From Takakia lepidozioides (lineage: Eukaryota > Plantae > Bryophyta), in contig CM060732.1 of the NCBI GenBank assembly GCA_030704615.1, forward strand, positions 5,146,001-5,210,000: 64,000 bases of DNA. The letters run 5' to 3'. Both the position numbers and the translations under genes were made by a program. Below are positions 4,162 through 60,355 of the stretch, one piece after another. Under the pieces are notes generated by a model. The model saw only the letters and a program-made list of their open reading frames with translations, had not been told where the DNA came from and searched no databases. Positions within the stretch are counted from its first letter, which is position 1. Each line of letters starts with the position of its first letter.

Positions 4162-4260
4162 CTGTCAAGATTTGATGGTTAGCTTGGATGTGACCATCGG
4201 CAGCTATATTACTGATGTGTAGTAAAGTGGGAGATGAATCTAGATTTTCTGGCACCTTAA

Positions 4261-14402: not shown

Positions 14403-17400
14403 CTAAACCGGGCTAAGTATGCATTTCCTCCCCCACGCTCCAAGGTTGATGTCCCCATCAACGTTTCTTCCGCTTTTGAGGTCGCCCTTCGAACGCTGCA
14501 ACTGCCTCGGATGCGTTTCCCATTTCTGAGGCACGCACCCAAGATGCCTCCACAAGATGATAGCCCTTCCATTTGACGAGATACTCCGTTTCTCGGTTCT
14601 TGAACCTCTTGACTTAAGTATTGCCTCCACCTCGTACTCAGGTTCATTTTCATGATCCAACAGCATAGGTGACGGGCGCAACACTTGCTGCCGATTCGGA
14701 CGTGCTTCATCTTTGAAGTAAGGCTTCAAAAGGGAGACATGGAATACTGGGTGCACCTTGCTGTTTGCCGGCAGCTCCAATTCATACACATCCTCATTCA
14801 TAACCCTCCGAATGCGAAAGGGACCCGCATACGGAGGTACGAACTTCGGACTCACTTCCGGAGGTAGTCGAAAATTCTTGATGTTCAACCAGACCTCTGT
14901 GCCTGCCTCAAACTTCACTTCCCTCCGCTTCCGATTCGCCTGCCTTTCATACCGTTTCCTAGCTTTGGCAATGTTGTACTTTGCGAGCTTCAACAAACGC
15001 TCGCGTTCTTCCAGTACCGCCGCTACTGCCGGTTCCTCAACGTCCTGGGCGGCCCAACTTGTCGGCACCAGAGGTGCTTTTCCATAGACCAACACAAAAG
15101 GGGAAACTCCCGTCGCGGAGTGTTCTGTGTTATTATTATAACAGAATCTGCTCTAGTGTCTCCATCTAAGTGTTCCATCCAGTCTGATTGGTCTGCCGAC
15201 ACGTATTCCGCAAGAATTGCTTCACTACGGAATTCACTCTTTCCGTTTGGCCGTCCGTCGTAGGTCGGAAGGCGGTGCTCATCTTCAGCCTCGTCCCCAT
15301 CTTCTTCCAAAGTGCTCTCCAGAATTTACTCGTAAACTTTGGATCGCGGGTCCGAGACCATATCCTTCGGGACTCCATGATGCTTTAAGACGTGGGCGAA
15401 GTAAAGTCGCCCTGTCTCCTGCGCCGTTGCCGTCTCCTTGGTGGGGATGAATGGGCCATTTTACTGAACCTATCTACCACCACCATGATTGCATCGAATC
15501 CTTTTGACAGCGGCATAGCAGTCATGAAATCCATCGAGACGCTTCCCAAGTCCCCTCTGGATCGGAATCGCAAGGGTTGTAACAGCCCCGCTTGCTTTTT
15601 TACGTACTCGCTCCGGTTTTGTTGGCATGTGGTGCATGTCTTGACATACTCCTCTGCCTCCTCCCTCAGTTTGGGCCATAAATACTCTTTCTCTTCAAGA
15701 GTGCCGCAGTGCGCTTGGCTCCACCGTGGCCCGCAAGCGGGCTATCATGGCATTCTCTCAAGAGACTATCCCTGATCCCTCCCTTTGGCACATAGAGACG
15801 TTTTTGCTTATACCGGAGCAGTCCGTTTTGCAAGTGGAACTGCGATTTAACCCCCATTCTCAAGTCCTGCATCACGCACTTTGCCAGCTCATCCTTCCGG
15901 CAAGCCTTCCGGATCTTCCTTTGGAGCGCCGTCTCGCCCTTGTACACCAACAGAGCTGCTGCTTTCTACTTAAAGCATCGGCCACCACATTGTCCGTCCC
16001 GGTTTGTACTGGATATCCACGTCGAACACTGCCAAAGTATCTTGCCACCTAAGTTGTTTTGGGGACAACTTGGGCTGCGTGGCAAAATACTTCACCGTGA
16101 CATTGTCCGTGAACACCTTCACTGGGTTGGAACCAACATAGTGGCGCCAGAGTTCAAGGCAATGCACCACCGCCTTCATCTCTTTTTCGTGCGTCGGCCA
16201 CCGTCGCTCCACTTCATTCAGTTTCTTACTTTCGTAAGCCACTGGACGTCCATCTTGCATAAGTACACCCCCAATTGCGAAGTCCGATGCATCTGTATGA
16301 ATCTCAAACGGACGATCGAACTCCGGGATTTTCAAGACTGGAGCTTCCGTCATCCGCTGCTTCAATTCAGCAAAAGCTTGGCCACAAAATGTGTTCCATA
16401 CCCAGACTTTGGATTTACACAGAAGGTCCGACAGCGGCCCCACGATCTTGGCGAAATTTCTCACATACTTCCGGTAATAGGAGGCGAGTCCTAGGAAGGA
16501 TCGCACTCCCGGGACCGAAGTCGGAGGCTCCCAGTCCAAGATCGCCCTCACCTTTCTGTCATCCATTTTGATCCCATCCTGTGTAATCACATGCCCCAAG
16601 AACTCCACTTTTGTGACCCCGAATTCGCACTTTGAAGCTTTGGCATACAGCTTCCCTTCTCGCAATTTCTGGAACACCCTTTTGAGATGCTCCAGGTGCT
16701 CCTCCTTTGTTTTCGAGTACACCAAGATGTCGTCGATGTACACGATCACGAAGTCATCCAACCACTCTTGGAAAAGGCTGTTCATCAGCGTGCTAAATGT
16801 CGCTGGTGCATTGGTGAGCCCAAAAGGCATCACCAAAAACTCATATGAACCATACCTTGTCCTGCACGCGGTCTTCTCCTCATCTCCTTCTGCCACCCGA
16901 ATTTGGTGATAGCCGGAGCGCAAGTCGATCTGGCTGAAATACTTCGCTCCTGCCAACCGATCGAAGAGGTCGTCGATCCTTGGCAAAGGGTACCGGTTTT
17001 TGATAGTCACCTTATTCAGAGCCCTGTAATCGACACACATCCGCAGCGTCCCATCCTTCTTGTCTGCAAATAGCACCGGGGCTCCGTAAGGTGACTTACT
17101 CGGCCGGATGTACCCCTTTGACATTAGATCCTTGAGCTGAGTCTTCAGCTCGACCAACTCTCTGTGGCTCAACCGGTAGGGCGCCTTGGCAGGCGGTCCC
17201 GCTCCCGGTATCACCTCAATCTTGTGGTCAACTCCTCTTCGCGGTGGCAAGCCGCTTGGTAAGTCCTCCGGCATCACATCCTGGTATTTCTCCAAAATCC
17301 CCTGATCCAATCTGGGCTCGGCTCCCCATCGCCTTCTCCTTTCACTTCTCTAATGTAAAGCAAAAACTGGGACTCGTGTGCCTCCTCCACGGCCCACTCC

Positions 17401-18152
17401 TTTGCTGACAGAAGGTTTATTCGCCCTCCCACGGATTTGGGCGTTTCCGACACTCGTAAAACCTCGTCACCATTCCCACATGGGAGCGTGGCTACTCTCT
17501 TGCGGCCATCTATGACCGCTCCGGATTTGCTCAAAAAGGTCATCCCTAAAATGAGATCCACTCCATCGATCTCGCAGATAGTGAAGTTCTCACGTCCCTC
17601 CCAACTCCCCAGTTGAAGAGGAACATCAAACGCCAACCTTGTCGCCAACTGAGGTTCTCCTTTGGCAGAGCGCACCTCAATAGAGGCCCCCACGTCACTT
17701 GTCGGGAGTCCCAACTTTCGCGCCGCCACCGGCGTCATGAAGGAGTGCGACGCTCCTGTGTCCACCAACAACGACACGTTAGTTCCGGATATTATCCCAT
17801 CCACGAACAATAATTGACTCCCTTTTCGCAGGGCGCCAGTTTCCTGATACAACTCACAAGAATAGTTGCCTACCTTGCAAGTCCTGGCGACTACCGCTTC
17901 CACCAAGCGACTGATGGTATCTTCTGACAGCTCCGTGGTCGCCCGAGTCATGTTCAATTGCCGGGGCTTCGTGCACTTCTTGGCCATGTGCCCGGGCTCC
18001 CCGCAATTGAAACACACTCCATCAAAGGTCGCCTTCTGTCCGCCATAAGCCGCTCCACCCGCTTTTCCTTTCGAAGCACCGGGTGCCGCCTTGACGTGTG
18101 AAGGACCTCCCTTCGATTTCCACGTGCCATTTTCGCCGCGTGGCCTATCCAC
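14403..18152 (-). pseudogene. pol: Gag zinc knuckle + pol (protease, RT, RNase H, integrase, chromodomain), multiply frameshifted
   Basis: CFNCGEPGHMAKKC; LLVDTGASHSF; [20 protein letters not shown]; [10 protein letters not shown]; [23 protein letters not shown]; GPFRI; PEYEVEAIL chromodomain start. Confidence 0.93.
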
Positions 18153-19033
18153 TTCTTTTCCGGTCGGGAGGAGTCACCTTCCCGCCGGGTCTTCTTGTGG
18201 TTCAGCTCCGTACGGCCTTGTCTCTCACCCCTAGGGACATCCGAGAAACATTCAGCTCTCTCAATTGCCTCGTTCAAAGTCTTGGGTGGCTTCTCCTCCA
18301 ACTTCCGCCTAGCCCATGGGGCCAGTCCTGCCACAAAGTTGAAGACCATTTCTGGTTCTGCCATGTCCGCGACTTCGAGCAACAGCACATTGAAAGCCTG
18401 GACATACCCCCGAATGTCGTATGTTTGCTTCAAATTCCTCATCTTGTCCCGGGCAAGCCAGGATGCGTTGAGGGGCACAAACTGTCTCTTCATCAATTCC
18501 TTGAACCCACTCCAGTTCAAGGTTTCCGGGCTTGGGCCTCGGTCGTGAAGGCGTTTCTGCCACCATTGTTGAGCATAGCCCCTCAAATAGGTGGGAGCCA
18601 CTTCCACCCGATCCTCGTCACTCAACTTGGCCGCCCGGAAGTACTGCTCTAGCTCCAGGAGCCAGGTGTTGAGTGCCTTCCGGTTTCGAACGCCCTCGAA
18701 GGTGCCGGGTTCCTTAGGCTTCACCTTAAACTTTGCCTTAGTGGAAGTGGCATTAGCCGCCTTCAACACGTCTTTCAACGTCCCGCCAAACTGCGCCAAC
18801 AACCCTTCCCAAAAGGCTGCCGGCATGGGAGGCATCTCTTGGTTTGTCGGAGCTCTCAAGGATTCCTCGGGCTCCGACTCCTCGGATTCCTCCCGCTCCT
18901 GAGCGGCCTCGTTTTCGGGAACATTCATCGCTTCCTCAAACGGCCGCCTCGGTGACACGTCGCCCCCATCGGGCTCACCGGGATCATCATCTTTTGGGCC
19001 GTTCCGCTTTCGCTTCGGCTTGCCCGACCCCAT
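17954..19033 (-). CDS. gag: Retrotransposon Gag
   Basis: KEPGTFEG...WLLELEQYF...YLRGYAQQWW...W..FKELMKRQF...LKQT..IRGY retrotransposon gag signature. Confidence 0.9.
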   Translation of the reverse strand: MGSGKPKRKRNGPKDDDPGEPDGGDVSPRRPFEEAMNVPENEAAQEREESEESEPEESLRAPTNQEMPPMPAAFWEGLLAQFGGTLKDVLKAANATSTKAKFKVKPKEPGTFEGVRNRKALNTWLLELEQYFRAAKLSDEDRVEVAPTYLRGYAQQWWQKRLHDRGPSPETLNWSGFKELMKRQFVPLNASWLARDKMRNLKQTYDIRGYVQAFNVLLLEVADMAEPEMVFNFVAGLAPWARRKLEEKPPKTLNEAIERAECFSDVPRGERQGRTELNHKKTRREGDSSRPEKKWIGHAAKMARGNRREVLHTSRRHPVLRKEKRVERLMADRRRPLMECVSIAGSPGTWPRSARSPGN

Positions 19034-19074
19034 GGTGAGGTCAATCCCAAGGACGATCGCGTATTGAACTCTAA

Positions 19075-19086
19075 GCTCTGATACCA
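19075..19086 (-). other. Primer-binding site (tRNA-iMet)
   Basis: TGGTATCAGAGC on the minus strand, 1 nt inside the 5' LTR boundary. Confidence 0.92.
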
Positions 19087-19087
19087 A

Positions 19088-19767
19088 TGTCGCACACCTC
19101 ACTTCGGTAAACTCCCCTTCAAGTCATAGTTACTCGCTTGATGCGCGCGCCTGACTCCCAACCTGGCCGCCGGGCCAACTTGGAGTTTCGGCTGCTCACC
19201 GGGACATAACGGTCCCCTTCCGCTTCCCTCTAAACCCTCCACCTATTTGGGACTAGGAGAATTCCCTTTGGTAGGTGGTAGTCCGGAACAGCTCCCCACT
19301 CTTTGGCCGCTTTCCGGCTCGCTCGCTTACTCACTAGTTTTTGGTCACCAACGGGCTTGCACCGTTCTTGGGGTTACTACTCCCTATATATACTTCTGTA
19401 GCTGTCCGCGGGGGTTTCATAACCAGCCATGCTATTTTATGGCGAACCACCACGAAAACCCTCGACTCCCGGTGATGAGTCGCGGTGAGTCTTGGCCCAC
19501 TCATCACGGCCCCTATGGACCGTGATGAGTCCCAAGACTCCCCACGACTCCCACCACGAGGTCTCCGCCCCCATGGTGAGTCCTATGCCACCCCCACCGC
19601 AACCCGGTGTGCGGGGCTCCACCTAGTGAGCGCCTCCGCCTCCTTGAGTGCCTTGGGTACTCAAGGGTGCTTCAGCCCCCCATATCTATCGCTGCCGATG
19701 CCCCCACTACAGGGGCAGCCCCTCATGTGTCCCGACCCCCCTGCCCTCAAGGCAAAGGGCTGCGACA
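19088..19767 (-). repeat. 5' LTR (680 bp)
   Basis: Matches 12827-13552 except for a 45-bp indel, a 1-bp indel and ~2 substitutions seen by eye. Confidence 0.95.
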
Positions 19768-19772
19768 GTGGT

Positions 19773-20850
19773 TGTCCAAAACTGTGTTTGCGCACATGAT
19801 CCTTGACACTAGGAGCATAGGCAAGTTCTTCCAAATAGGGCCATATGACTCCCATCAGCCCACTGTCAACAGGTCCCGTATGATGACTCCATGGCACCGG
19901 ATAAATCCCAGAGTGGGGAGGATTGCGAGAGCCTTTGTATGGAGTATCATCTAGAAGGAGAGTATTGTCCACTGTCCATTGTGGCATCTCCTGCCAGAGT
20001 CTATCACTTGACACTTGTAAAAGTAGGGCTTTGGGCCTCCCCTGCTATCACCAGGTGGCCATGGTGACCTTTCACAATGGGATCGATCCCACGTGAAAAC
20101 AAGTTGGGAAGCGTATTCCCGAAATATGAAGTCAACCGCTGCCTTCACATTATGGGCTTGCGTTGACGACCAGAGGCCAACTTCAAAATGTTAAAAACAT
20201 TCCGCAATGAACTCATACACATAAGGCCTCAAAATGACTTTCTTTGTGCCACATGACTTTGCCACAAGCCCCGAGGGAACATATACAGCCCCGTAATTAG
20301 CATCACATAGCAAGCCATTCAGATCTAGAATTAAAAGATGTTTGGAGGTGGGAGGAGTGGGCTTATCAACTCGTTGGATTGCCGCATCTCTCACGTCATG
20401 TGTGGTAGGTACTCCACTCTCATTTGCAGCTTCAGACCCCACAGTGTTGACTACTGCTGCTGCCGGTGGTGTGCCAAATAGCACTTCATCATCTGCGGCA
20501 AATGTGCTTTCATGAGGGGAATGAACTTTGTTTGTGGTGGTAGACTGCAATGCAGCATCATCCATGCATGGGTCAGCCGAGGTGGGATCTCCATAATCGA
20601 ATGAGAATTTCAGGTCACGTCGGGTTGGCAAGGTTGGCATGACAGTTGACCCATCTGCCAAAGAACTACCCGCACCTGAAGGGTCAGCGCTGGCAGGCCA
20701 AGGAACTCCACATTTGGATGCAAACACTTTGTTCATCTCCACCACTTGGGAGAAGAGAGACCTCATCTCCACCAGCCCACTCTCCATCGTTTCCACCTTC
20801 TTCGACAAAGTCTGTAGGGCAGAATTCTGGTCCTGTCAATAACATGAACA
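19773..20850 (-). pseudogene. FCP1/NIF domain gene disrupted by the LTR element
   Basis: KHLLILDLNGLLC...VILRPYVYEFIAECF*HFEVGLWS...FTWDRSHC...NTLLLDDTPYKGSRNP...SFGQP. The frame resumes past the TSD at 12826 (PLR then a GTATGT donor). Confidence 0.8.
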
Positions 20851-23877: not shown

Positions 23878-24377
23878 NNNNNNNNNNNNNNNNNNNNNNN
23901 NNNNNNNNNNNNNNNNNNNNNNNNNNNNNNNNNNNNNNNNNNNNNNNNNNNNNNNNNNNNNNNNNNNNNNNNNNNNNNNNNNNNNNNNNNNNNNNNNNNN
24001 NNNNNNNNNNNNNNNNNNNNNNNNNNNNNNNNNNNNNNNNNNNNNNNNNNNNNNNNNNNNNNNNNNNNNNNNNNNNNNNNNNNNNNNNNNNNNNNNNNNN
24101 NNNNNNNNNNNNNNNNNNNNNNNNNNNNNNNNNNNNNNNNNNNNNNNNNNNNNNNNNNNNNNNNNNNNNNNNNNNNNNNNNNNNNNNNNNNNNNNNNNNN
24201 NNNNNNNNNNNNNNNNNNNNNNNNNNNNNNNNNNNNNNNNNNNNNNNNNNNNNNNNNNNNNNNNNNNNNNNNNNNNNNNNNNNNNNNNNNNNNNNNNNNN
24301 NNNNNNNNNNNNNNNNNNNNNNNNNNNNNNNNNNNNNNNNNNNNNNNNNNNNNNNNNNNNNNNNNNNNNNNNNNNNN
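23878..24377. other. Assembly gap (500 N)
   Basis: Run of N. Confidence 1.
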
Positions 24378-24399: not shown

Positions 24400-25075
24400 A
24401 TCTCCAGAACGGAAATGTGGTACCGGCATTTCCGTTCTGACTGAAATCGTGAACCATCGGAACTGAAATGCGGCATCGCATTTCCGTCCGAGTCGCACCT
24501 TTCCGACATTCCAGAACGGAAATGCGGCGCCCCCGCATTTCTTTTGTATATGAGGCATGGAGCTGTGGGACGGAATGGGGCACCAGTATTCCGTCCAGTG
24601 AGACCTTCATACTTTCCCGAACGGAAATGCGCCACGGCATTTCCTGTTCACAACTAAGGTATGTGAAGGTGGAACGGAAATGCGGTACCGCATTTCCGTT
24701 CAGATTGAACACATGAACCACGGGAACTGAAATGCGGTGCCGCATTTCCGTCCGAATCGCACCTTCCGACATTCCAGAACGGAAATGCGGCGCCGCATTC
24801 CCTTTTGTATCTCAGGCATGGAGCTTTTGTATCTCAGAATGGAGCGTGGGAAATGCGGCACCGCATTTCCGTTCAACAACTAAGGTTTGTGAAGGTGGAT
24901 CGGAAATGCGGTGCCGCATTTTCTTCCAACAAGTACGGTATGTGTAGGTTCGGGATGGTACTTAACGGAAATGTGGCGCCGCATTTGCATTTTCACTCCA
25001 ACTCATGAGACGCTGGGACGGAAATGCCATGAAATGTGAACACGTGGAGCAACGGAATTGCGGCATATGTCTGCA
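24400..25075. repeat. Array 1 of GGAAATGCGG-YR-CCGCATTTCC palindromes (~13 copies, ~53-bp period, ~265-bp higher-order unit)
   Basis: Starts at ~24411, 24464, 24518, 24572, 24623, 24676, 24728, 24781, 24849, 24902 and 24967. Confidence 0.93.
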
Positions 25076-25424: not shown

Positions 25425-28400
25425 ATGCCAAAGGGGAGGAAGCAGATGCGTCTACAGGAGGAGATTGCCATCTCGCAGCATCACGCAGGCAACCCAACCA
25501 CCAGTGAGAGCTCCGTGCTATCGGGATTCGCCAGCTGATCGAGCCCCGAAACCCCCCTCATTTTCCTTTTGCAATTCTTAGACTGTATGCTAGGAGACTT
25601 GAATGCATAAGATGTTTGCATGCCTAACCGGAAAGGTGGACGTGCTGGAGGGATCGCAGGAATCCGAAGAGCCGCAGACAGAGTCCGTGGAGCTAGTTGC
25701 AGCACGCACACCCAGCCGATCCACGAGCACGGGTCTTCCTGTCGGGCCTAGCCCTGTGCGTTTTAAGGATGCGGCTTTGAAGGGCAAGTCTTTGCAGTTC
25801 AAAGCCCCAGAGAGCAACTCGCGTTCGAAGGTCATGGAGAATCGCCAGCAGGGGTCTAGCCCTTCTCCAGCAAAGACGAAAAAGAAGCAGCTCGTCCTTC
25901 AACTTGTTTCTGAACCGGACCAGGCCGTTTCCCCCCCACCCAAGCGAATGAAGCATATTCAATTGCAGCAGACACCTTCACCTGCAAGAATGAGAAGCAG
26001 AAGGCAATCAGGGGAAGGGCGGAGCAGTCTCCCGCAAAACCGATCCACGAGCTGAAGCCCAGTTCCTGCTTGATTCCAGCCTGGTGATTGGGGGCGTCTC
26101 TGCTACAGCGAAGGCAATGGGATCGACCGATTTCGTCGATCTGGTACCGGAGGAGGGTGCTGCCGCTCAATGTTCGCAGCAAGACCTGACCACCGTGGAG
26201 GAAGATCTTCAAAATATTGCAGGCCCGGAGGAGGCCTCTGCAATTGCAGAATTGCCTGCAAAGATTCCCCAGAGTGCAGCTCCAGTTGGGGATGCTCCAG
26301 CTGCTCAGCCCCTACCGCCACCAGCAAAAATGTCTCCGGAGGAATTCCAAAGTGCACCAGATACAATGTTGGAGGAGACACACAGTAGCATTGGCAGAGT
26401 TCTGGGCAGCAGGGTGTTCCAGCGGACTCTTCGAATCCCACTCTGTCCCATGGTCTCCCTTCCCATCGTCAGGCAGGCACTTCCCGGAGATGTGGATAAG
26501 CTCAAGTTTGCATTTCGAGAAGGGTACCGTCTAGGTTCGCCAGCCTTCTACGTTTCCCTTGAGAATGAGGACGGCGAATCTCGTGGACCCATTGCGGATG
26601 AATTGTCAACATGGGCTACCCATTGGCACACTCGCAACGACGAATTCGAGGCAATGCTGAAGGGTGATCCAGACTTCGGCCATATGTCGGGTAAAATGTT
26701 CTTTGTGTGGGACGGGAATCACCGACTTCTTGCCTGGTGGGAGTACATCAAGCAGAACCATGCCAAGCACATTGGCTGGCATTACATGGTGGAGTGTGTC
26801 ATCCTCAAGGTGAAGGCGGCAGACTCCTCCCTGCTCAAGAATGCCATGGCGGACCTCAACTCGTAAGATACTCATACCCTCCCAAGCACGTTCGAAATGT
26901 GGTGCCGCATTTCGGTTTCCAATCTGTTTTGTTTCCGTGCTTCCGTGGACTGAACTGGAGAGTGTGCCTTGTAGGGTCACTGAAAATGCGTACGTGCATA
27001 CCCACATAACACATATTTTGTACAGGGTGACGAAAACTGGTCTCACTGATCCGCACATGTTTGCGGAAATGCTGGAGCCCGAGCTCATTCAGAAAGTCGT
27101 GGCAAAAACTGACCGGACATGGTATCATCTCACTATGGATGGAATGGTGGAGGTGATATACGAAGTAAGTCGTCCTCCCATTTCCCTCTACTCATCCTTC
27201 CCCAATTTTCAGTAATCTTTCCACATGAATCGAATGTAACGCTTCTGCATGTTTTTGTTGGCAGTCAAACATCAAGCTGGATTTGGCCCATGCCAAAACG
27301 CTTCTTCATGGAAAATGAGGGGCAGGTCAAAACGTTGCAGTCATTGACTGAGCACTTGAAGGAAGCCGGGGTCAAGTCCAGAACGAAATACAAGTCAAAG
27401 CTTGTGAAGCTAGTGGCCATTGCAGATCCGGCACTTGGAAATGACTTCATCCCCGAGATTGCAAAACACTATTCTCGGGCCATGCAGCCGACCATGCAGT
27501 TGGAGAAACTGCATCACCTCTCAACGGCATGTGTTGAGGTGAAAGAGAAGGTGAGGTTTCAATGCACTGAAGTTCCTTCCTAGCACTAGCCCCTCTTCTT
27601 CCTGCTCCTGACATTGGATCGGAAATGGCAGACACGGTGGCTGTCGATCTGGAATGCATCAGAGAGTATAAGGACAATGTGGTCTTTTCCACTCGAAGTT
27701 TCCGACCCTGCAGTGGATGTGTGGCTCAACCGCATGACTTGGTGGTTCCAGGTAATTCAAGGTACTTCACCATATTTGCCTTTCTGAAATGAATTCCCTG
27801 AACTGCTACGTGACAATGCATGTGGGAATCGCATATAATGACGAATGCGAAGGAGCAAGTCGTAATGCATACAAATTCGTTCGGCTTGTACGTCAAATGG
27901 GATGGAACACAGACATTGGAAGACTACGTGACACGTTTCAGATGTGCGTACCAAGGACAACCTCTTTGCCAGGGAGCTGCAGACAGCAAGAAGGAGCGTG
28001 GAGTTTATACATCAGGAGGGAGCGGGAAAAGCTGCAATGCGAATTGTTTACAGGTGAAGCCTAGTTGTCCTTGTATGCGAAGCCTGGTTATGAGTTTTGT
28101 CTGGGAAATGCGGCACCGCATTCGCATTTTAAGTTTTCGGTTGCACTCTGCGAGTACGTTGGTCTCAACTTTTGCTCACGCATGCTGACTACCCTGCAGG
28201 TATATGAAATACGTGCTTCTTCAGACAGGGGCCCTGGCTCAAGAGCCCCCGTTCTTCATGGCTTGGACCGTGGCGGGCCCAAGCTGTGTCTACACACCAG
28301 AGATGCAGAAACAATGGCATGCCGCGCATCTCGTTGGATGCCCGTGGTACCTGGACATGTCTGGCGGAATTGTTGACGAGTCTGAGAAAGATCTACTTGC

Positions 28401-30550
28401 AAAAGCAGAGGAGAAGAGAAAATAAAGACGTGTCCCTGCTCGGCCAGAGACGGCAAAGGAAGCTGCTGCTCTGGAACAATCCAGAAAGGCAGTTGAGATG
28501 GCACAGAAGACGGTGGATGCAGCTGTGCAGGCTCAACAGAAGGGGTCGAAGAAGCGGACTCGCCAGCAAGGAGCAGCAGTTGTGACACCCAAGAAAACGA
28601 AGAAGCAGAAACAGATAGTGCAGGAAGAGGGTGAGGAAGAGGACTCCGATGGAGACTTTGCAACCAGCCCACCCCCCCGAAACGCAGCCGAAATCCCCTG
28701 TGCCCACCGTTGTCACGAGAGGGACGAGAACTGGCTCGGCAAAGAAGGCACTCTTCAACCCCCCGGGGGGGCACCCTTTCGAGCCGGTGGAAATGAAGAG
28801 GCCAAAAGTGGATCCCGATACAGTAGTCCAGTGTGTAAATGAGAGTTTCTTGGCGGCTTTGGATGGACGGGCAGCCAAGTTGGCATACATGAAGACCATG
28901 GAGGGTCTGAAGGGCAGAGCACTGAAGAAGGCGGCTGCCAAAGAGCCTTCCGACACCCCTGGGTTTCTGAAGATGGTCTCATTCTTTGAGAGGGTGTGTG
29001 CAGACAAGGATTGTAGGAGGGGCGGAAATGCCACCGAGTGGCCTTGCGATATGATCATCTTGGATATTCCGGACGGAGAGCCTGTGGAAGGACTGCAAGC
29101 TTTGCCATCTTGGAACAGGTACTCCGAGGACTTTTGGAAGAAAGGATTCGGGCTCGCCCGCATGGTGTTGGACGGCAGAGGCTATGTGGTTGCCCGGGCG
29201 AGCAGAGGCAAAAACACGCAGACAGGAATTGCGAAGTGGACCCGCAAGAGCGCCGTCCCAATTCTGAAGAAGAAGTGGACGTGCATCAACACATTGGGCC
29301 TTCGGTCGGAAGGGAAGAAGGTAATTACAACATTGGCACTCGTCCTTTCATTTTCTTAGGAGTTTTGAAATGCGGTGCCGCATTTGATTTCTAATCGTTC
29401 CCCACTGTGTATGCAGACGAAGCAGTTCGATGCATACTGCTTTGTGAAGGAGAACTCCACCTTTGCTTTCCGGAAGGAGGGATTGTTGGTTGACCCGAAC
29501 TGTGACCCCATCGATTACGACGTCCTGTTCAACAATGTTCCCACGGAACTTCTCCCTCGTAGCCTCACTTCAACTGAACCCCTCCGGTATTCATTGACTC
29601 AGAGCCCTGCCTTCATTCAGACAATTATGGACACATGCACTGACGTGGAGGGCACAGTGCTCGACCTCATCTGTGGGACAGGTATGCAGAATCTTGTTCT
29701 ATGCTGTTCTGCAAATTCTCGTTATGCTTTAATTCGCAACATCTGAAGGGCCATGTCATAATGTGTGGATGGCATTTTAACAGGTGCCTCAATGTGGGCT
29801 GGGCGGTTTTCCGACCGGCACCTCTTCGCCTACGAGGAGGACACATCCGTTTGGGGAACCCATCTGGAAGGGCTGCAACGGAATGTGAAGGCTCCCATCG
29901 AAGCCAAAGACTCCTCGGATTTGTCGGAGTCGGAGGAAGAGACAGGGACATTGATGCCAAGGAGAACCCGGAATACGAGTGAGTGCAAACATTGTAAGTT
30001 TGCAAAGCCTTCTGGGTGATTTTTTGTCAAACGCATTTCCAGACTGTGCTTCTCATTACTCTCCTTGGTGATTGTTATGTGCAGGATTCCAGGATCCGGG
30101 TCGAAACATGTAGGGCCTACACTTCTTGCCAGGAAGAATGTCCCGTTCTTTGCGAGGGGCGACTTCATGACGAGCCCGGTGAAGGACTACTCCCTTCCTA
30201 GTTATGCAGCGAAACTCGCAAATACAGCGATTAGACGATGTGAGAATCCCAGTAAAGTAGAGCAGATTTTGGAGAGGGCTAGGGAGGACAGAAGGATAAG
30301 GAAAGAGTTGGCAATAGCTGAGACAGGTAGACGGGTGCGAAAGTTCATATGTGATTCAGCGGATGAGAGCGATGCAGACAAGGAGGACGACGAGCCAACG
30401 GAGGTGAGATGGTCGGTTCCGCAAGGTGAAGATGGGATTTTCGAAAGCCTGGCCAACGAGCAGTCCGCTGGAGATGAGAGCAATGATGGGGTGGAGGCGG
30501 AGCAGGACAGTCAAGGACAGGACGACGATAGTGATGATTTTCAAGATTAA
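25425..30550 (+). pseudogene. Gene A: multi-exon ParB/Srx-like domain + beta-class amino-DNA-methyltransferase-like protein (copy 1, most complete)
   Basis: FFVWDGNHRLLAW (26711-26725, ParB/Srx DG.HR motif); CDMIILDIPDG (29063, motif-IV-like); SPAFIQTIMDTCTDVEGTVLDLICGT|GASMWAGRFSDRHLFAYEED (motif X/I/II-like, spliced 29682-29783). GT-AG introns at ~26863, 27165, 27551, 27753, 28054, 29321, 29682 and 29979. TAA at 28423 (GAA in the other copies) and frameshifts. The start codon is uncertain. Confidence 0.7.
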
Positions 30551-30686: not shown

Positions 30687-31515
30687 GGAAATGCGGCACC
30701 GCATTTCCAAAACCAGGGCAAGAACAATTTTCCGTTTCATGGTTTGGACATCAGAAACTGTTCGGCCGAACGGAAATACGGTGCCGCATTTCCGTTTTCG
30801 ACACGGCAGTTTTGCCGATTGCCAGCTCCTTCCATTGAGGTAAATGGAAATGCGGAGGACGAACATGGAAATGCGGTGCCGCATTTAAATTTTGGAGATG
30901 GACATTTTTCCAACTGCAGACCCATCGACGGAAATGGGGCTCACCATTCCATGATGCTAGACGGGAATGCGGCACCGCATTCCATTGTCCAATAAGAAAT
31001 TTCGATGACGTACATGGAAATGCGGCGCCGCATTTCCAAAACGGACATCGTTGTTTGTCCAATTCGAGACCCTTTGACGGAAATGCGGCACCGCATTCCA
31101 TTGTCCAATACGAAATTTTGATGACGGACATGGAAATGCGGTGCCGCATTTCCAGAACGGACATCGTTGTTTGTCCAATTCCAGACCCTTCGACGGAAAT
31201 GCGGCACCGCATTCCATTGTGCTCTCCGGAAATGCGGTGCCGCATTTCATTGTCCGGTACGAAATTTCGATGACGGACATGGAAATGTGGTGCCGCATTT
31301 CCAGTATGGACATGGACAAGCATTAGCGATTGGACATGCTTGGACAATTCAAGGTCCAATATGGAAATGCGGTGCCGCATTTCCAATTCGAAGTATGGTA
31401 ATGCCATGTCAGGAAATGAAATGTTGTACAACATTTCCATTACAACGACAACGGAGGAAAGGGAGCTGCCAGAAATTGCTGCATGGAGAAAAATAAAATG
31501 CGGTGCCGAATTTCC
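30687..31515. repeat. Array 2 of the 22-bp palindrome (116-bp dimer unit)
   Basis: About 13 copies; core unit ..GGAAATGCGGCGCCGCATTTCCAGAACGGACATCGTTGTTTGTCCAATT..GACGGAAATGCGGCACCGCATTCCATTGTCCAATAAGAAAT.. Confidence 0.93.
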
Positions 31516-31791: not shown

Positions 31792-32448
31792 TCACCAAGT
31801 CGACGGAACTTCGATAGCCCTCAAAACAAGCTCATTACTTATGCGGCACCTCGAGGTAAACTGCAATGCGGTCGATCTGGTGCCCTTGGTGGAGCTGACG
31901 ACAATGTCATGCCCATCAATCATACCACCATCATACATTGACAAGGTCGTTGTGGGCCTAATGTGCCCGTTCGATTCGTCTTTGCAACTCAGCCGAATGT
32001 CTCCATACACTGGAAGAGCGGATCGAACTCCACGAATATAGTTTTCCCCGGTGCCGTCCTCCCTGGTCCACTGGCAGCAGTTCCAGCGCCAAAGTGAGGC
32101 CGTGCGTGATCTGTCCGGCATCCCATTCCACCTTTGTATATCGAGGTCAACAATTTTCAGGACCCACGGACCGCATTGACCCTCGCCCTCACCTCGCTCA
32201 AAGCGGTAATAGCCCTCCAAATACTCCATTGCGCGCAAAGACTCCCGCTTGATTCCAGAAGCGTCTGTGAAAACAGAGAGCCAGACAATGATGTCTCTTG
32301 ATTCTGGTTTGAACATAGCATAATCGTGGCCATGATAAGGGCAGTCAGCAGGATTTTGACGGCACGACATTCTTGAAAAAGAGCAGCGCGGTGGCTGGAA
32401 GAAGTTCAAGCAAACGCTGCAATTCCTCACAAACATTCCAGGGCACAT
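31792..32448 (-). CDS. Gene B, unknown protein (copy 1; internal deletion relative to 37.8 kb, 5' end cut at 32523)
   Basis: 218-aa ORF ...DCPYHGHDYAMF...RWNCCQWT...PVYGDI...YDGGMIDGHDIVV...LQFTSR...ELVLRAIEVP; paralogous to 38378-38995. Confidence 0.65.
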   Translation of the reverse strand: MCPGMFVRNCSVCLNFFQPPRCSFSRMSCRQNPADCPYHGHDYAMFKPESRDIIVWLSVFTDASGIKRESLRAMEYLEGYYRFERGEGEGQCGPWVLKIVDLDIQRWNGMPDRSRTASLWRWNCCQWTREDGTGENYIRGVRSALPVYGDIRLSCKDESNGHIRPTTTLSMYDGGMIDGHDIVVSSTKGTRSTALQFTSRCRISNELVLRAIEVPSTW

Positions 32449-32855
32449 TTAAATTTCCCCCCTACAGGAACCTGCACGGATGAAGATTGGCTGCTCCATG
32501 AATGTAGCCGTTTCAGTTTCCTAAACAGGAGCCAAGAGCCCACATTTGCGGTGCAGGTTGCGCTTCGCCCCTTCCTACATCATTTGCTTTGCAAAGCCTC
32601 CATCCCACGCCTGTGCATATCTTGTGATCATCGCGTTCCATCTCTCATCTCTCGGCTTGATAGTACTTAGAAAACACGCAGGAGAAAGAAAAAAAAAAAA
32701 ACCCAAGTCCCAGCCCTCTAATGGGCAACCCTATAAGCAATTTTTTTTTAAAATTTAACCTTTTGGTTACCAAGCTTGCACTAGAAGTCATTCCGGTGAC
32801 TATTTGGTGGCAAGCTCGCGCTAGTCAACCCTCGTTGACCACCCTTTCCTCTAGT

Positions 32856-33040
32856 GCGGAGTCATACAGTCACGACGACGTCTACCAAAGTAGTCGTAGA
32901 GGACTACGTAGTCACGCAGTCATTTCAACAACTACGTGAAGACCCATTTGGTCCAAAAATACAAAGAAGTCATGGTCAAAGTCAGGAAAACCATGACTAC
33001 CGCGCCTCGGCAGTCAGATATACCGCGATCTGTTGTAGTG
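32856..33040. mobile_element. CACTA right-end fragment truncating gene A copy 2
   Basis: Ends ATCTGTTGTAGTG (same TIR as 1190-1201) with AGTCAT/GTAGTC repeats; followed directly by gene A exon TGGTCTTTTCC (cf. 27680). Confidence 0.75.
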
Positions 33041-35886
33041 TGGTCTTTTCCACTCGAAGTTTCCGACCCTGCAATGGATGTGTGGCTCAACCGCATGACT
33101 TGGTGGTTCCAGGTAATTCAAGGTACTTCCCCCGATTTGCTTTGCTGGAATGAATTCACGTGACAAATGCATGTTGGAAACGCAGGTAATGACGAATGCG
33201 AAGGAGCAAGTCGTAATGCATAGTGATTCGTTCGGCTTGTACGTCAAATGGGATGGAACACAGACATTGGAAGACTATGTGACACGTTTCAGATGTGCGT
33301 ACAAGGACAACCTCTTCGCCAGGGAGCTGCGGACAGCAAGAAGGAGCGTGGAGTTTACACACCAGGAGGGGGCGGGAAAAGCTGCAATGCGAATTGTGTA
33401 CAGGAAGCCCAGCTCCCGTTGTATGCAAAAGCTGGGTTATGAGGTTTGTCTGGGAAATGCGGCACCGCATTCGCACTTTATCGTTTCGATTGCACTCTGC
33501 GAGTACATTCTCATAACTTGTGTTCACGCATGTTGACTGTCTTGCAGGTATATGAAATACGTGCTACTTAAGATAGGGGCCCTGGCGCAAGAGCCCCCGT
33601 TTTTCATGGCTTGGACCGTGCCGGAACCAAGCTGTGTCTATCTACCAGAGATGCAGAAACAATGGCATGCTGCGCATCTCGTTGGATGCCCGTGACCTGG
33701 ACATGTCTGGCGGACTTGTTGACGAATCGGAGAAAGATCTGCACGCAAAAGCGGAGGAGAAGAGAAAGGAAAGACGTGTCCCTGCTGGGCCTGAGTCGGC
33801 AAAGGACGCTGCTGCTCTGGAACAATCCATAAAGGCAGCTGAGATGGCATAGAAGACGGTGGATGCAGCTGTGCAGGCTCAACAGAAGGGGTCGAAGAAG
33901 AGGACTCGCCAGCAAGGAGCAGCAGTTGTGACACCCAAGAAGACGAAGAAGCAGAAATAGAAAGAGCAGGAAGAGGGTGACGAAGAAGACGATGATGGAG
34001 ACTTTGCAACCAGCCCACCCCCAAAACGCAGCTGAAATCCCCTGTGCCCACCGTTGTCACGAGAGGGACGAGAACAAGCTCAGCCAAGAAGGCACTCTTC
34101 AATCCCCTAGGGGGGCACCCTTTCGAGCCGGTGGAAATGAAGAGGCCGAAAGTGGAGCCAAAAACAGTAGTTCAGTGTGTCAATGAGAGTTTCTTGGCGG
34201 CTTTGGACGGACGGGCAGCCAAGTTGGCATACATCAAGACCATGGAGGGTCTGAAGGGCAGAGCACTGAAGAAGGCGGCTGAAGCAGAGCCTTCCGACAC
34301 CCCTGGGTTTCTGAAGATGGTCTCGTTCTTTGAGAGGGTGTGTGCAGACAAGGATTGTAGGAGGGGCGGAAATGCCACCGAGTGGCCTTGCGATATGATC
34401 ATCTTGGATATTCCGGACGGAGAGCCTGTGGAAGGACTGCAAGCTTTGCCATCTTGGAACAGGTACTCCGAGGACTTTTGGAAGAAAGGATTCGGGCTCG
34501 CCCGCATGGTGTTGGACGACAGAGGCTATGTGGTTGCCCGGGCGAGCAGAGGCAAAAACACGCAGACAGGAATTGCGAAGTGGACCCACAAGAGCGCCGT
34601 CCCAATTCTGAAGAAGAAGTGGACGTGCATCAACACATTGGGCCTTCGGACGGAAGGGAAGAAGGTAATTACAACATGGCACTCGTCCTTTCATTTTCTT
34701 AGGAGTTTTGAAATGCGGTGCCGCATTCGATTTCTAATCGTTCCCCACTGTGTATGCAGACAAAGCAGTTTGATGCATACTGCTTTGTGAAGGAGAACTC
34801 CACCTTTGCTTTCCGGAAGGAGGGATTGTTGGTTGACCCGAACTGCGACCCCATCGATTACGACGTCCTATTCAACAATGTTCCCACGGAACTCCTCCCC
34901 CATAGTCTCACTTCAACGGATCCCCTGCGGTATTCATGGACTCGGAGCCTTGCCTTCATCCAGACAATTATGGAGGCATGCACTGACCTGGAGGGCAGAG
35001 TGCTGGACCTCATCTGTGGAACAGGTATGCAGATTCTTGTACTATGTTGTTCTGTGAATTCTCATTCTGTTCAAATTCGCCATGTGTGAACGGCCATTTT
35101 TCAATGAGTGGATAGCATTGTAACAGGTGCCTCAATGTGGGCTGGGCGATTTTCCAACCGGCACCTCTTTGCCTACGAGGAGGACACATCCGTCTGGGGA
35201 TCCCATTTGGAAGGGCTTCAACAAAATGTGAAGGCTCCCATCGAAGCCAAAGATTCCTCGGATTCGTCGGAGTCGGAGGAAGAATGCCGAGGAGAACCCG
35301 GAATACGAGTGAGTGCAAACATTGTAAGTTTGCAAAGCCTTCTGGGTGATTTTTTGTCAAACGCATTTCCGGACTGTGGTTCTCATTGGTCTCGTGGGTG
35401 ATTGTTATGTGCAGGATTCCAGGATCCGGGTCGGAACATGTAGGGCCTACACTTCTTGCCAGGACGAATGTCCCGTTCTTTGCGAGGGCCGACTTCATGA
35501 AGAGCCCGGTGAAGGACTACTCTCTTCCTAGTTATGCAGCTAAACTCGCAAATACAACGATTACACGATGTGAGAATCCCAGTAAAGTAGAGCAGATTTT
35601 GAAGAGGGCTAGGGAGGACAGAAGGATAAGGAAAGAGTTGGCAGCAGCTGAGACAGGTAGACGGGTGCGAAAGTTCATATGTGATTCAGCGGAAGAGAGC
35701 GATGCAGACAGGGCGGACGACAACCCAACGGAGGTGAGATGGTCGGTTCCGCAAGGGGAAGATGGGATTTTCAAAAGCCTGGCCAACGAGCAGTCCGCTG
35801 GACATGAGAAAGGCAATGACGGGGTGGAAGGGGCGCAGGACATCAAGGACAGGACGACGATAGTGATGATTTTCAAAGATTGGTAG
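33041..35886 (+). pseudogene. Gene A copy 2 (3' half, methyltransferase-like domain only)
   Basis: Clearly homologous to 27680-30550 but diverged; DIPDG and VLDLICGTG retained; has its own stops (TAG ~33849). Confidence 0.8.
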
Positions 35887-36019
35887 AATTTTAATTAACT
35901 CTCTGTACATTTAAATTCTCTTCCAGAGCATATAAAGGAAATTCTCACCGTCCTTCATGTCCCCTCTCCCATGTGCTTCTCAACGACACCATCGTCCAAA
36001 CCACGTCCCTCCCAAAATC

Positions 36020-36969
36020 GGAAATGCGGCACCGCATTTCCATGTCGGAACGGAAATGTGGGAACTGCAAGAACCTCGTTTGGAAATGCGACACCGCATT
36101 TCCAAAACCGGGGCAAGAACAATTTTCCGCTTCCTGGTTTGGACATCAGAAACTGTTCGGCCGAACGGAAATGTCGTGCCGCATTTCCGTTTTCGACACG
36201 GCAGTTTTAGGGAAATGGAAATGCCACCCCGCATGCGGAGGTCGAACACGTTATTTACATGGCAGACATGGAAATGCGGTGCTGCATTTCCATTTTGGAG
36301 ATGGATGTTTATCCAACTCCAGACCGATCGACGGAAATGCGGCTCCGCATTCCATTGTCCAATAAGAAATTTCGATGACGTACATGGAAATGCGGCACCG
36401 CATTTCCAGAACGGACATCGTTGTTTGTCCAATTCCAGACCCTTGGACGGAAATGCGGCACTGCATTCCATTGTCCAATAAGAAATTTTGATGACGTACA
36501 TGGAAATGCGGCGCCGCATTTCCAGAACGGACATCGTTGTTTGTCCAACTCCAGACCCTTGGACGGAAATGCGGCACCGCATTCCATTGTCCAATTCGAA
36601 ATTTTGATTACAGACATGGAAATATTGTGCCGCATTTCCAGAACAGACTTCGTTGATTGTCCAATTCCAGACCCTTCGACGGAAATGCGGCACCGCATTC
36701 CATTGTCCAATAAGAAAACTTGATGACGGACATGGAAGTGCGGTGCCGCATTTCCAGAACGGACATGGACATGCATTGGCGATTGGACATGCTTGGACAA
36801 TTCAAGGTCCAATATGAAAATGTGGTGCCGCATTTCCAATTCGAAGTATGGTAATGCCATGTCAAGAAATGAAATGCGGTACAACATTTCCGTTACGACC
36901 ACAACGGAGGAAAGGGAGCTGCCAGAAATCGCAGCATGGAGAAAAATGAAATGCGGTGCCGCATTTCCG
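36020..36969. repeat. Array 3 of the 22-bp palindrome (~16 copies)
   Basis: Starts at 36270, 36333, 36386, 36449, 36502, 36565, 36618, 36681 and 36734: alternating 63/53-bp spacing. Confidence 0.95.
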
Positions 36970-37244
36970 AGCTTGAGCATGTACATGTTTCCTTTTACTC
37001 ATACATGGATTTCCTTCACCTCAGGACCCTGATATCGTTGACTCTGGTATATTCATGTGGAAAGACACATTGTAGAAATGAGACCACAAATTGTAGACAG
37101 TGGGCCAATTACAGCAGTTCCTGAACACAATAAAACACAGCACACAGAAGTGAGGTACGATGGGTTGTTTTATTGATCAAACACGTTGTCTCACATTTAG
37201 CAACTCTTGACAAATCTAAGCCCTTCCGCCTTCTACATGGGCGT

Positions 37245-37998
37245 CACCAAGTCGACGGAACTTCGATAGCCCTCAAAACAAGCTCTTTACTGAACGGGCA
37301 CCTCTAGGTAAACTGCAATGCGGTCGTTCTGTTGCCCTTGGTGGAGCTGACGACAATGTCATGCCCATCAATGATACCACCATCATACATTGACAAGGTC
37401 GTTGTGGGCCTAATGTGCCCGTGCGATTCGTCTTCGCAACTCAGCCGAATGTCTCCATACACTGGAAGAGCGGATCGAACTCCACGAATATAGTTTTCCC
37501 CGGTGCCGTCCTCCCTGGTCCACCGGCAGCAGTTCCAACGCCAAAGTGAGGCCGTGCGTGATTTGTCCAGCATCCCATTCCAGCTTGGTATATCGAGGTC
37601 AACAATTTTCAGGACCCGCGGACCGCATTAACCCTCGCCCTCACCTCGCTCAAAGCGGTAATAGCCCTCCAAATACTCCATTGCGCGCAAAGACTCCCGC
37701 TTGATTTCAGAAGCGTCTGTGAAAACAGAGAGCCATACAATGATGTCTCCTGATTCTGGTTTGAACATAGCATAATCGTGGCCATGATAAGGGCAGTCAG
37801 CAGGATTGCGGCGGCACGACATCCTTGCAAAAGATTAGCGGAGTACGCTCAATGACAACAGCTCCCGGATGGAGGAGGCAGCAGTGCGGTGGCTGAAAGA
37901 AGTTGAAGCAAACGCTGCAATTCCTCACTAACACTCCAGGGCACATTTAAATTCCCCCCCTACAGGAACCTGCACGGATGAAGATTGGCTGCTCCATG
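37245..37998 (-). pseudogene. Gene B copy 2
   Basis: Homologous to 31792-32448, with in-frame stops at ~37628 and ~37304. Confidence 0.7.
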
Positions 37999-38039
37999 AA
38001 TGTAGCCGTTTCAGTTTCCTTCCCTGCCATGCAAACTAT

Positions 38040-38995
38040 GGGCGGTAAGTGCCAGGTGGGCCTATAGCCACTCGAGACGATGAAGTCCATCCCCCTTCGA
38101 TGTAAATGCGGCGCCGAATTTCCATCCGGGGGATGGACTTCGGTGGCAGATTTCAAACTATACCCCGTGGATGAGAAAGAGGTATCGGGTCATCCACCGC
38201 TGGCGTGATGAACACGTTACACGATGGTTGGTGGGTACGTGGGACCCAGATGCTCCATTATTGGAGCCCGCACTGCTCTTCCGCTTCTAATCATTTCAAA
38301 AATCTAAGGGCTTCGTTGCTGTCCGCAAGGTCATTGTCATCGGCATCAAAGACGTCCTCAGGTCCTCCTTTGCAAGGATGTCATGCTTCTGGAACCGGGA
38401 TGACTGCCCTTATGGAGGCTTTGATTATGCAATGTATTCGGCCACATCGGGAGACATCGTTATCTGGTACACAGATTACACAGAAGATACTCGTTCGAAT
38501 GTGGAAACATTGTCCGCTTTTGAGTATATCCCAGGCCACTACGCCTTCGAGCGGGGTGACGATCTTGGTCTGAGGAGTCCGTGGCTCCTGCGCATCCTTG
38601 ATTCCAATTTTCCCAGCTATGACCGGCATCCATGCAGAAGAATGCGCACTGCTATGCTGTTGCGGTGGAACTGCTGCCAGTGGACGTGGGTGGACTCCAT
38701 CGGAGAGACGTATACTCCTGAAGGAGTGCGCTCCTCTTCTCCATTGTATGGGGACATTCTCATTGGTGTGGACGACGAAAACGTGAAGCTTTCCATATTC
38801 GATGGTGGTATGATTGAAGGGCACGACATTGTGGTGAACATCAACAGGGGCGGTACAACGGCTGCAATCCAGTTTACCTCGAGGAGCCCGATGACTCATG
38901 AGCTAGTTCTCAGAGTAGTCGAAGTCCCATTGACAACGTGGCTTGTATTCAGAAGGCACAGGGCTAAAGATTTGTTTGCACAATCAGCACAGTAG
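38040..38995 (+). CDS. Gene B', unknown protein paralogous to gene B
   Basis: 205-aa ORF (38378-38995) MSCFWNRDDCPYGGFDYAMY...RWNCCQWT...PLYGDI...FDGGMIEGHDIVV...IQFTSR..ELVLRVVEVP. Coding-like sequence extends upstream through a stop. Confidence 0.65.
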
Positions 38996-39344
38996 ACGTG
39001 CTTCAAATGCAATTCATGTGGATCAATAAAAACCCCATTGTGCCCTCTTTTTGTTCTATTCTGCATCCATCGTTCCCAGAATGCATCATTCCTCATTTCG
39101 TTTGGGATTGGGAGTGTGGGTGGATTTTGCAAGTGGCTGGTAGGCTGAAATGGGCCCCCATTGTACAGAGCAGTACCACCCTACCATTCGTGAAACATTG
39201 CCTTTCAATATGTAATTCTAAAAAACATTGCCGAACCTCCTTCATCGGGAGGTCCTTCTCCCCCTATGACCGTGATACCCTGAACCCTATTCCCGCGGAC
39301 ACTCATTTCCGGAAAATAGTCCTGCTCATGTTTTTTTCGACACT

Positions 39345-39406
39345 TACGACTCTGCTCATGGCTCATGCCGCTCATGGCTCATGGCTCATGAAATAGCAGC
39401 CCCCCT
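39345..39406. repeat. Element terminus type 1: (GGCTCAT)n GAAATAGCAGCCCCCCT
   Basis: Identity with the copy at 56850-56911 stops exactly after CCCCCCT. Confidence 0.75.
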
Positions 39407-39446
39407 TGAGAGAGCCTAGATCCCAAACGAGGGTGGACTTTGTAGA

Positions 39447-42400: not shown

Positions 42401-42621
42401 AGGTGTACACCATCACCATTTCAGAATTACCTACCTGCAATTGCACCGACTTCCAGATCATGGCGAACAAGGGGGCATCATACTGCCCTTGCAAGCATCT
42501 GTACTACGTGTACCTAAAAAGACTCCGGTGTAATTCCACAACTCATCACTTCATACATGCACCAGGGTTGAGCCCCCAAGAGGTGTGCACTCTTCTGAAT
42601 ATGGATCCAGGGGACCAGTGA
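39447..42621 (+). pseudogene. Gene C: Mutator-like transposase (WRKY/GCM1-like Zn domain, DDE core, SWIM) with an internally inverted segment ~41012-42146
   Basis: + strand: DGHPWC..CAGKLRCLNPAC..CAHC..IHVGVHCHP; VMFDH..TMGAHVYD..CEMKGED. - strand: LWEGINEQM..GFMADN.QANW..SCGFHW; NMAESVH. + strand: YTITISELPTCNCTDF..CKHLYYV (SWIM). Confidence 0.8.
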
Positions 42622-43409: not shown

Positions 43410-43522
43410 AGGAGTCCGCTCATGAAATCCACGTGTCTTAGACTTCGGCTCACCGCTCATGCGGCTCATGCGGCTCATGGCTCATGGCTCATGGTTTCTG
43501 CTCATGAAATAGTAAACCTCCT
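43410..43522. repeat. Element terminus type 2: (GGCTCAT)n..CTCATGAAATAGTAAACCTCCT
   Basis: Shares CTCATGAAATAG + 10 nt ending CCT with terminus 1; PPR coding sequence starts immediately after. Confidence 0.75.
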
Positions 43523-48010: not shown

Positions 48011-48016
48011 GAGTCA

Positions 48017-60311: not shown

Positions 60312-60355
<44 letters not shown>

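Follow-up and report, generated by a model that had tools for sequence, protein, structure and literature searches.

A palindrome-associated ParB-methyltransferase fusion gene, likely borne by Mutator-like transposons, in Takakia lepidozioides and other land plants

Introduction

Here, we describe a spliced gene that joins a ParB-like domain to a methyltransferase-like domain in the genome of the bryophyte Takakia lepidozioides. It lies in a stretch of 64,000 nucleotides (GenBank assembly GCA_030704615.1, contig CM060732.1, positions 5,146,001 to 5,210,000 of the forward strand), referred to here as the window and numbered from its first base. Both domains are present in a single gene, the window copies carry lesions, palindromes stand in arrays beside them, and a transposase-like gene is linked to the family in related loci. 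A large DNA transposon of the Mutator-like kind likely carries the fusion gene as an accessory.

Structure and splicing of copy 1

One of three copies in the window, copy 1, is laid out as follows.

25425-30550, + strand: gene copy 1, ParB-methyltransferase fusion
25425-26410, + strand: N-terminal region of low complexity with a putative start codon and several indels relative to other copies; first intron and frame tentative
26411-26862, + strand: ParB/sulfiredoxin-fold domain, with VR, GNHRLxA (GxxRxxA) and, late in the domain, a conserved Asn
26863-26974, + strand: GT-AG intron with one palindrome (26893-26914)
26975-28053, + strand: middle exons 26975-27164, 27265-27550, 27632-27751 and 27835-28053, with frameshifts near 27313 and 27952 and acceptor AT at 27833-27834
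28054-28199, + strand: GT-AG intron with one palindrome (28104-28125)
28200-28978, + strand: last part of the middle domain plus a Lys/Glu-rich linker, with a stop at 28423-28425 and a frameshift in a C run near 28678
28979-29320, + strand: methyltransferase-like domain, first part, with motif IV DIPD at 29063-29074
29321-29416, + strand: GT-AG intron with one palindrome (29366-29387)
29417-29890, + strand: methyltransferase-like domain, second part, with the S-adenosylmethionine (SAM)-binding motif I DLICGTG interrupted by an intron at 29682-29783
30085-30550, + strand: probable last exon with acidic tail; acceptor 30084, donor tentative

Eight introns were counted in the fusion gene. Those placed in copy 1 lie at 26863-26974, 27165-27264, 27551-27631, 27752-27834, 28054-28199, 29321-29416 and 29682-29783; for the first intron, a canonical donor is absent near 25535. 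The motifs quoted in the original prediction, which was made from the sequence of the window, are present in both halves of the gene: IP at 26435, VR, and WDGNHRL near 26710-26730 in the ParB part, and DIPD (29063-29074) and VLDLICGT/G, split by the GT-AG intron 29682-29783, in the methyltransferase part. Splicing over 29321-29416 and 29682-29783 yields a 230-residue colinear match to the predicted protein P0265 of the liverwort Riccia sorocarpa (E 5e-9). A single contig of run X2, from a related copy, has introns 27551-27631 and 27752-27834 spliced out; the RNA nature of runs X2 and X3 is presumed only. Among the contigs examined, none bridges the ParB and methyltransferase exons or crosses the SAM-motif intron.

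The original prediction took the two halves to be one gene, and the comparison with predicted proteins indicates that they are indeed one spliced gene and not two, because a read-through model of copy 1 (its four breaks, three frameshifts and a stop, written as X) aligns colinearly with single proteins across both halves. The model matches Riccia P0264 (1207 residues) at residues 103-687 (E 6e-20) and 780-990 (E 5e-6), and P0226 of the fern Adiantum nelumboides at residues 111-557 (E 4e-22) and 795-827. The ParB domain and the middle region after it align with P0264, P0225 and P0226, and the methyltransferase part with P0264, P0226 and P0250; these comparators are predicted gene models whose existence as proteins is unproven.

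The family is large. At least 14 gene models belong to it in Riccia, most of them partial, and 456 representatives have E values of 0.001 or better. Methyltransferase-like segments lie 3' of the ParB exon, on the same strand, in many of 80 metagenome loci, which collapse to 37 clusters and hold many divergent and decayed copies. A homologue search with the methyltransferase exon of the window found no relative. Among solved structures, no significant sequence match was obtained for the ParB exon, alignments A2 and A6, P0264 or P0265.

Lesions and the other copies

Copy 1 is a pseudogene and itself does nothing, contrary to the intact gene first supposed. Its reading frame is interrupted by the stop at 28423-28425 and shifted by one base near 27313, 27952 and 28678; one splice acceptor is also broken (AT for AG at 27833-27834), and there are extra indels at 25993-26135 relative to the X1 and X2 contigs. 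The equivalent acceptor reads AG in copies 2 and 3. The high-depth X1 contig has neither the 28423 stop nor the 28678 frameshift, so an open form of the gene exists in the family.

33039-36042, + strand: copy 2, 5'-truncated, without the ParB exon, 91.9% identical to copy 1, with its own stops and frameshifts and followed by its own palindrome array
50542-53546, + strand: copy 3, 5'-truncated, inside a 6.9-kb duplicate

Both copies begin at the equivalent of 27678, lack the ParB exon, have stops of their own and show 91.9% identity to copy 1. What had been said of 'all three copies' therefore holds for the 3' half, DIPD included, and fails for the ParB exon. The duplicate holding copy 3 (50026-56911, 99.8% identical to 32524-39406) begins in sequence resembling pentatricopeptide repeat (PPR) genes and may be a recent duplication or an assembly artefact.

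Short GACTACGT/ACGTAGTC-type repeats occur at 32880-33030, where copies 2 and 3 are truncated, and are perhaps the end of another element. An X3 record with the same species label aligns around motif IV (29060-29264) and represents a more divergent subfamily, about 82% alike.

The ParB/sulfiredoxin domain

A structure model of the ParB exon, made with a 135-row alignment, has a predicted local distance difference test (pLDDT) score of 92.6. Of the 32 Foldseek rows listed for it, 31 belong to the ParB/sulfiredoxin (Srx) superfamily (sulfiredoxin, ParB, Noc, PadC, KorB, SerK and SbnI), with sulfiredoxin as the best row at E 0.007 and none below E 0.001. The same superfamily fills the top 11 of 15 rows returned by VIA, headed by PadC (Z 7.9, root-mean-square deviation 2.8, 95 aligned). 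The modelling thus supports the ParB/Srx fold that had been predicted for copy 1. Across the 135 rows, R21 is conserved at 91%, G102 at 92%, R105 at 87%, A108 at 86% and N150 at 93%, and the GNHRLxA motif (Box II, GxxR) at 86-99%.

At the sequence level, the search for relatives of the ParB exon found none in viral contigs or annotated phages. As described in PMC12704722, the nucleotide specificity of ParB/Srx domains is not predictable from sequence, and ParB folds fused to enzymes bind various nucleoside triphosphates (NTPs), with no clamp role required of them.

The methyltransferase-like domain

Motif IV precedes motif I in the window gene, which is the beta-class order and agrees with the class originally proposed. 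The family assignment comes through the Riccia homologue P0265, which matches Pfam N6_N4_Mtase (PF01555; E 2.5e-5, 24.8 bits, just under the cut-off of 26.7), five PHROG methyltransferase families and Atlas clusters of the N6_N4_Mtase family (0.94-0.95, 190 shared features). The fold of P0265 was modelled with N-terminal rows only, its C-terminal half being unstructured because alignments A3-A5 misplaced C-terminal exon fragments; with the confident half, Foldseek found CcrM (E 7.6e-4), M.BceJIV and M.MboIIA among many Rossmann methyltransferases. Sequence and model together support a beta-class amino-methyltransferase-like domain in the C-terminal part.

Motif I (D-x-F-x-G-x-G) reads DLICGTG in the window and DFAGGWG in Riccia. 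It is degenerate in most metagenome loci, and many of these, being decayed copies, have lost its glycines. Motif IV departs from the canonical (D/N/S)-(P/I)-P-(Y/F/W), with DIPD in every window copy, and the X1 contig has no motif IV change among the differences listed. Twenty distinct readings were counted by hand, many of them from decayed copies: DIPD, DLPT, DLPS, DFPI, DVPF, DIPE, DIPR, DIPI, DIPW, DVPR, DVHG, DILG, DLLE, DMLG, DVLG, DMLK, DVIG, EMPR, NILR and NILG. Position 4 is never Tyr and is aromatic in two of the 20; position 1 is Asp in 17 and never Ser. The DVPF reading is that of Adiantum P0250. We did not count the DIPW of locus L056 as a sign of activity; its Trp is possibly a decay product of the Arg in its close relative L047. 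A P-x-W after motif IV is conserved across the family.

Phage matches to the methyltransferase came from three records (tblastn E 4e-3) of a single enzyme type, with motif IV LVIADIPYN and 78 close records. The context of the motif is LVIADIPYN in phage Lrm1, LVIADIPEN in locus L001 and MIILDIPDG in the window, and the Riccia protein is 42% identical to ABY84344.1 of Lactobacillus phage Lrm1 over 52 columns around motif I. DIPY is described as the catalytic motif of working HindIII-type beta-class N6-adenine methyltransferases (PMC12294265). Because the family has Asp first and matches adenine methyltransferases of this type, the Ile of motif IV was likely inherited and only the Tyr lost. DIPD, which the original prediction set against DPPY, is thus likely no eroded DPPY, and what is missing is the Tyr (absent from all 20 readings). 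With only the Tyr missing from a DIPY type, the motif points to an ancestry in N6-methyladenine (6mA) rather than N4-methylcytosine (4mC) enzymes. The 4mC link first suggested is hence disfavoured, the eukaryotic 4mC enzymes that have been described having SPPY or TSPPY. Descent from the DIPY phage subgroup is a lead only, the phage match being weak.

In HP0593, a DPPY enzyme, the Tyr is described as stacking on the target base, and its change to Gly abolishes activity (PMC3036652). RlmJ uses a Trp from elsewhere in place of the motif IV Tyr (PMC3814359), so activity in the present family is conceivable despite the loss. Between copies 1 and 3, the domain has 16 changes at 550 non-synonymous sites versus 19 at 161 synonymous sites, a ratio of 0.25; the ratio is 1.43 in the last exon and 0.29-0.72 in the linker.

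Palindrome arrays and the transposase-like gene

A 22-bp palindrome, GGAAATGCGGYRCCGCATTTCC, has 59 matches in the window at up to three mismatches, versus none in 100 shuffles, and is restricted to 24.4-43.1 and 50.9-55.7 kb. Eight palindromes lie upstream and 12 downstream of copy 1, and copies 2 and 3 are followed by arrays; within copy 1, three introns hold one palindrome each and the exons hold none. The arrays had escaped the original prediction. Two stand behind a transposase-like gene, at 42890 and 43031.

24464-24988, no strand: upstream array of GGAAATGCGGYRCCGCATTTCC, eight copies; left end masked by an N gap at 23878-24377
30687-31515, no strand: downstream palindrome array, 12 copies
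39420-42621, + strand: broken Mutator-like transposase gene with GCM-like zinc finger, D..D..CxxH and SWIM; inverted internal segment

A scan for near-palindromes in 55 loci (26 clusters) found at least seven copies in 13 loci (six clusters), shuffles giving at most five. The palindromes of locus L018 were dropped as support, since most of them lie in an apparently unrelated insertion inside the gene. The sequence varies by family, as in L042 (15 sites, spaced about 60 bp apart), L077 (11) and L002 (four), patterns that were picked after the fact. In three clusters (L026-L029, L034, L051, L057), an A/T-rich TTTTTG(C/T)A(A/G)AAAA is present in 7-11 copies upstream of the ParB exon.

The motifs of the transposase-like gene were recognised by eye, and its Pfam SWIM match (E 0.015) is below the cut-off. 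Its layout fits the WRKY-GCM1/DDE/SWIM arrangement described for Mutator-like transposases (PMC1702500), with the middle of the gene, about 41000-42100, inverted relative to the ends. Relatives of the transposase lie upstream in seven of the 14 clusters with at least 7 kb of upstream flank, six of them head-to-head, and in none of the 17 whose downstream flank reaches 7 kb or more, this flank being partly the gene itself. The upstream linkage and the palindrome arrays support the transposon association raised in the original prediction.

Other sequences near these features were also recorded. GCTCATG-rich ends occur at 39324-39406, 43248-43520 and 56828-56911, with ATGAGC opposite at 43261-43281. 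Those at 39406 and 43520 were considered as ends of the palindrome-bearing element and rejected, having no inverted partner in the window; the GCTCATG-ended sequence is probably a small separate element. Cys/Trp-rich frames of two related kinds, about 220-230 residues long, lie at 31792-32448 (-), 37240-37950 (-), 38291-38995 (+) and 55796-56398 (+). They stand between palindrome array and transposase-like gene, in opposite orientations and with no Pfam match, and are possibly further accessory genes.

The window as a whole is plant-like and repeat-rich; besides PPR fragments and a Ty3 retroelement, it contains a Harbinger-like nuclease and NIF-domain relics. The PPR fragments are degenerate, many and in both orientations (43500-44750, 48000-48500, 56900-60800), and the Ty3 retroelement is nearly intact (14403-19123, -), its frames for gag, protease and reverse transcriptase being long. 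NIF-like phosphatase frames in repeats, at 3307-4164 (-; Pfam NIF E 3.6e-9) and 20191-20835 (-), may be cargo of other transposons.

Relation to known systems

The same pairing of a ParB-like domain with an N4C/N6A methyltransferase is described for the accessory protein of the Ectocarpus transposon Sola1-1_Ec32 (PMC12477816), which has 1104 residues against the 1207 of Riccia P0264, is encoded on the strand opposite to the transposase and was suggested to bind its own element and modify it. The original prediction did not take account of this published pairing. The likeness noted is one of architecture, and there are differences: the present family is found in land plants, is linked to a Mutator-like and not a Sola transposase, and has no motif IV Tyr. 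For PAG2 and PAG3, accessory genes of Bostrychia Plavaka elements (10.1101/2025.02.11.637652), a ParB-like gene is reported beside inverted-repeat arrays, with an N6_N4_Mtase gene in the same element; there, ParB-2-oxoglutarate oxygenase and methylase-SET are two genes, whereas ParB and methylase form one gene here. The architecture is thus known from an algal transposon, and what is new is the land-plant lineage and the Mutator-like element type, to which we add the DIPY link and the putative cognate palindromes. We found no paper on a land-plant or Mutator-borne ParB-methylase in a literature search that covered subscription papers thinly.

Among prokaryotic and phage systems, DIPY enzymes of the M.HindIII group (PMC12294265) and of phage Lrm1 share the placing of motif IV before motif I; the window family differs in lacking the Tyr, in its fusion with ParB and with a long middle region, and in being spliced. 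Phage fusions of ParB_N and N6_N4_Mtase have the same domain order and are the top named Atlas clusters for P0264 (0.82-0.83, a lead only), but the plant proteins have about 500 extra middle residues and a ParB exon without a sequence-level phage match. ParB-terminase loci are described as having supplied other methylases to eukaryotes, and Iyer and colleagues list ParB-linked methylases with few in land plants (PMC4738411). Bacterial ParB-parS, KorB and Noc have in common with the family the fold, the GxxR motif and a repeated palindrome flanking the gene; here, however, there is no ParA, and no helix-turn-helix (HTH) or dimer domain was identified.

VANC of the Arabidopsis VANDAL elements (PMC5735166) offers an analogy of function, being a transposon protein that binds family-specific motifs massed in introns and non-coding parts of its own element; the intron and flank positions of the palindromes are similar to those of VANC targets. 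It is an unrelated protein with 9-bp non-palindromic motifs, and demethylation has been demonstrated for VANC. N4CMT of bdelloids and MpDN4MT1 of Marchantia share the eukaryotic beta-class amino-methyltransferase fold; as described, they are active host genes with SPPY or TSPPY and without ParB, whereas the window family never has Ser first.

Proposed role and alternatives

The reading we favour, to which we give an even chance, is that of an accessory protein of a transposon, loading on the palindromes of its own element as ParB does on parS, with a methyltransferase domain that is under constraint but probably weak or dead. An intact protein would recognise the palindrome through its middle region; nucleotide binding at the GxxRxxA pocket would then lead to loading and to spreading along the element, as ParB spreads from parS, and the loaded protein could mark the element as self and so maintain its expression or mobility. 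In this lineage, the ability to bind SAM and touch DNA is likely retained by the methyltransferase domain, with methyl transfer probably weak or nil because the motif IV Tyr is missing.

Several observations weigh against this proposal. Pfam and PHROG scans of copy 1's own exons returned no relevant family, and P0264 has no Pfam match to an HTH, canonical ParB clamps having a central HTH and a C-terminal dimer domain. The model behind the methyltransferase fold has a poor mean pLDDT of 43.9 and is of the Riccia homologue, not the window protein. Segment 28979-29416 is near-identical between copies 1 and 3 (about 99% alike), and this extends over an intron (one of 96 intron bases differs), which suggests that recent exchange, not selection, explains part of the conservation of the domain. 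With L018 removed, arrays of at least seven copies stand upstream in five of 26 clusters, three of them A/T-rich, and the arrays could be transposase sites instead. The Mutator-like family of 39420-42621 is inferred from motifs and a sub-threshold SWIM match, and in the window this gene is downstream of copy 1 on the same strand. No terminal inverted repeats or target-site duplication enclosing the gene were found in the window, where an N gap lies on the left and the surroundings are rearranged.

That the domain is instead active on adenine (or N4-cytosine) through a rebuilt catalytic site, and is steered by ParB loading to mark its own element, is unlikely in our estimation. The catalytic Asp and the second Pro are kept (Asp first in 17 of 20 readings), motif I looks intact in the window and Riccia, the substitution ratio between copies 1 and 3 is 0.25, Adiantum P0250 reads DVPF, and the conserved P-x-W could recall the substitution of Trp for Tyr described in RlmJ (PMC3814359). 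However, position 4 of motif IV is unconstrained (D, T, S, I, E, R, G, K), loss of the Tyr kills or weakens related enzymes (as described in PMC3036652), and the motif I glycines are gone in many metagenome loci, though these are decayed copies.

We hold it to be just as improbable that the palindromes are transposase binding sites and the ParB-like domain only a nucleotide-dependent switch or enzyme, with no DNA clamp. Two palindromes do lie directly behind the transposase-like gene, enzyme-fused ParB folds that bind various NTPs need not clamp (PMC12704722), sulfiredoxin is the best Foldseek row, and a clear array is absent from most related loci. Against this, the palindromes cluster on both flanks and in three introns of the fusion gene, and red algal elements with a different transposase are reported to have arrays beside ParB-like genes too (10.1101/2025.02.11.637652).

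A bolder picture, more doubtful still, has giant Mutator-like elements of liverworts, ferns and other land plants carrying a transplanted ParB-parS system, in which a nucleotide-gated clamp would load on family-specific palindromes and slide, and an active D-I-P-x methyltransferase would write 6mA against host silencing. A domesticated host gene or captured host gene fragment amid incidental repeats, for which one might cite the eight introns, the spliced contig in run X2 (presumed RNA) and the annotated gene models in Riccia and Adiantum, is very improbable in view of three copies in 64 kb, all broken, the many divergent decayed copies across 80 loci, the 14 or more mostly partial Riccia models and the transposase linked upstream.

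Implications

The family reveals, in non-seed plants, a large stock of methyltransferase-like genes of the beta class that differ from the Marchantia 4mC enzyme. The pairing of a protein family with a palindrome makes the proposal advanced for the algal element directly testable. Should intact proteins of the family prove to load on their own palindromes, a ParB-parS-like clamp would operate in plant chromatin, and this would be a new route of transposon self-recognition and protection, comparable to VANC and built from bacterial parts.

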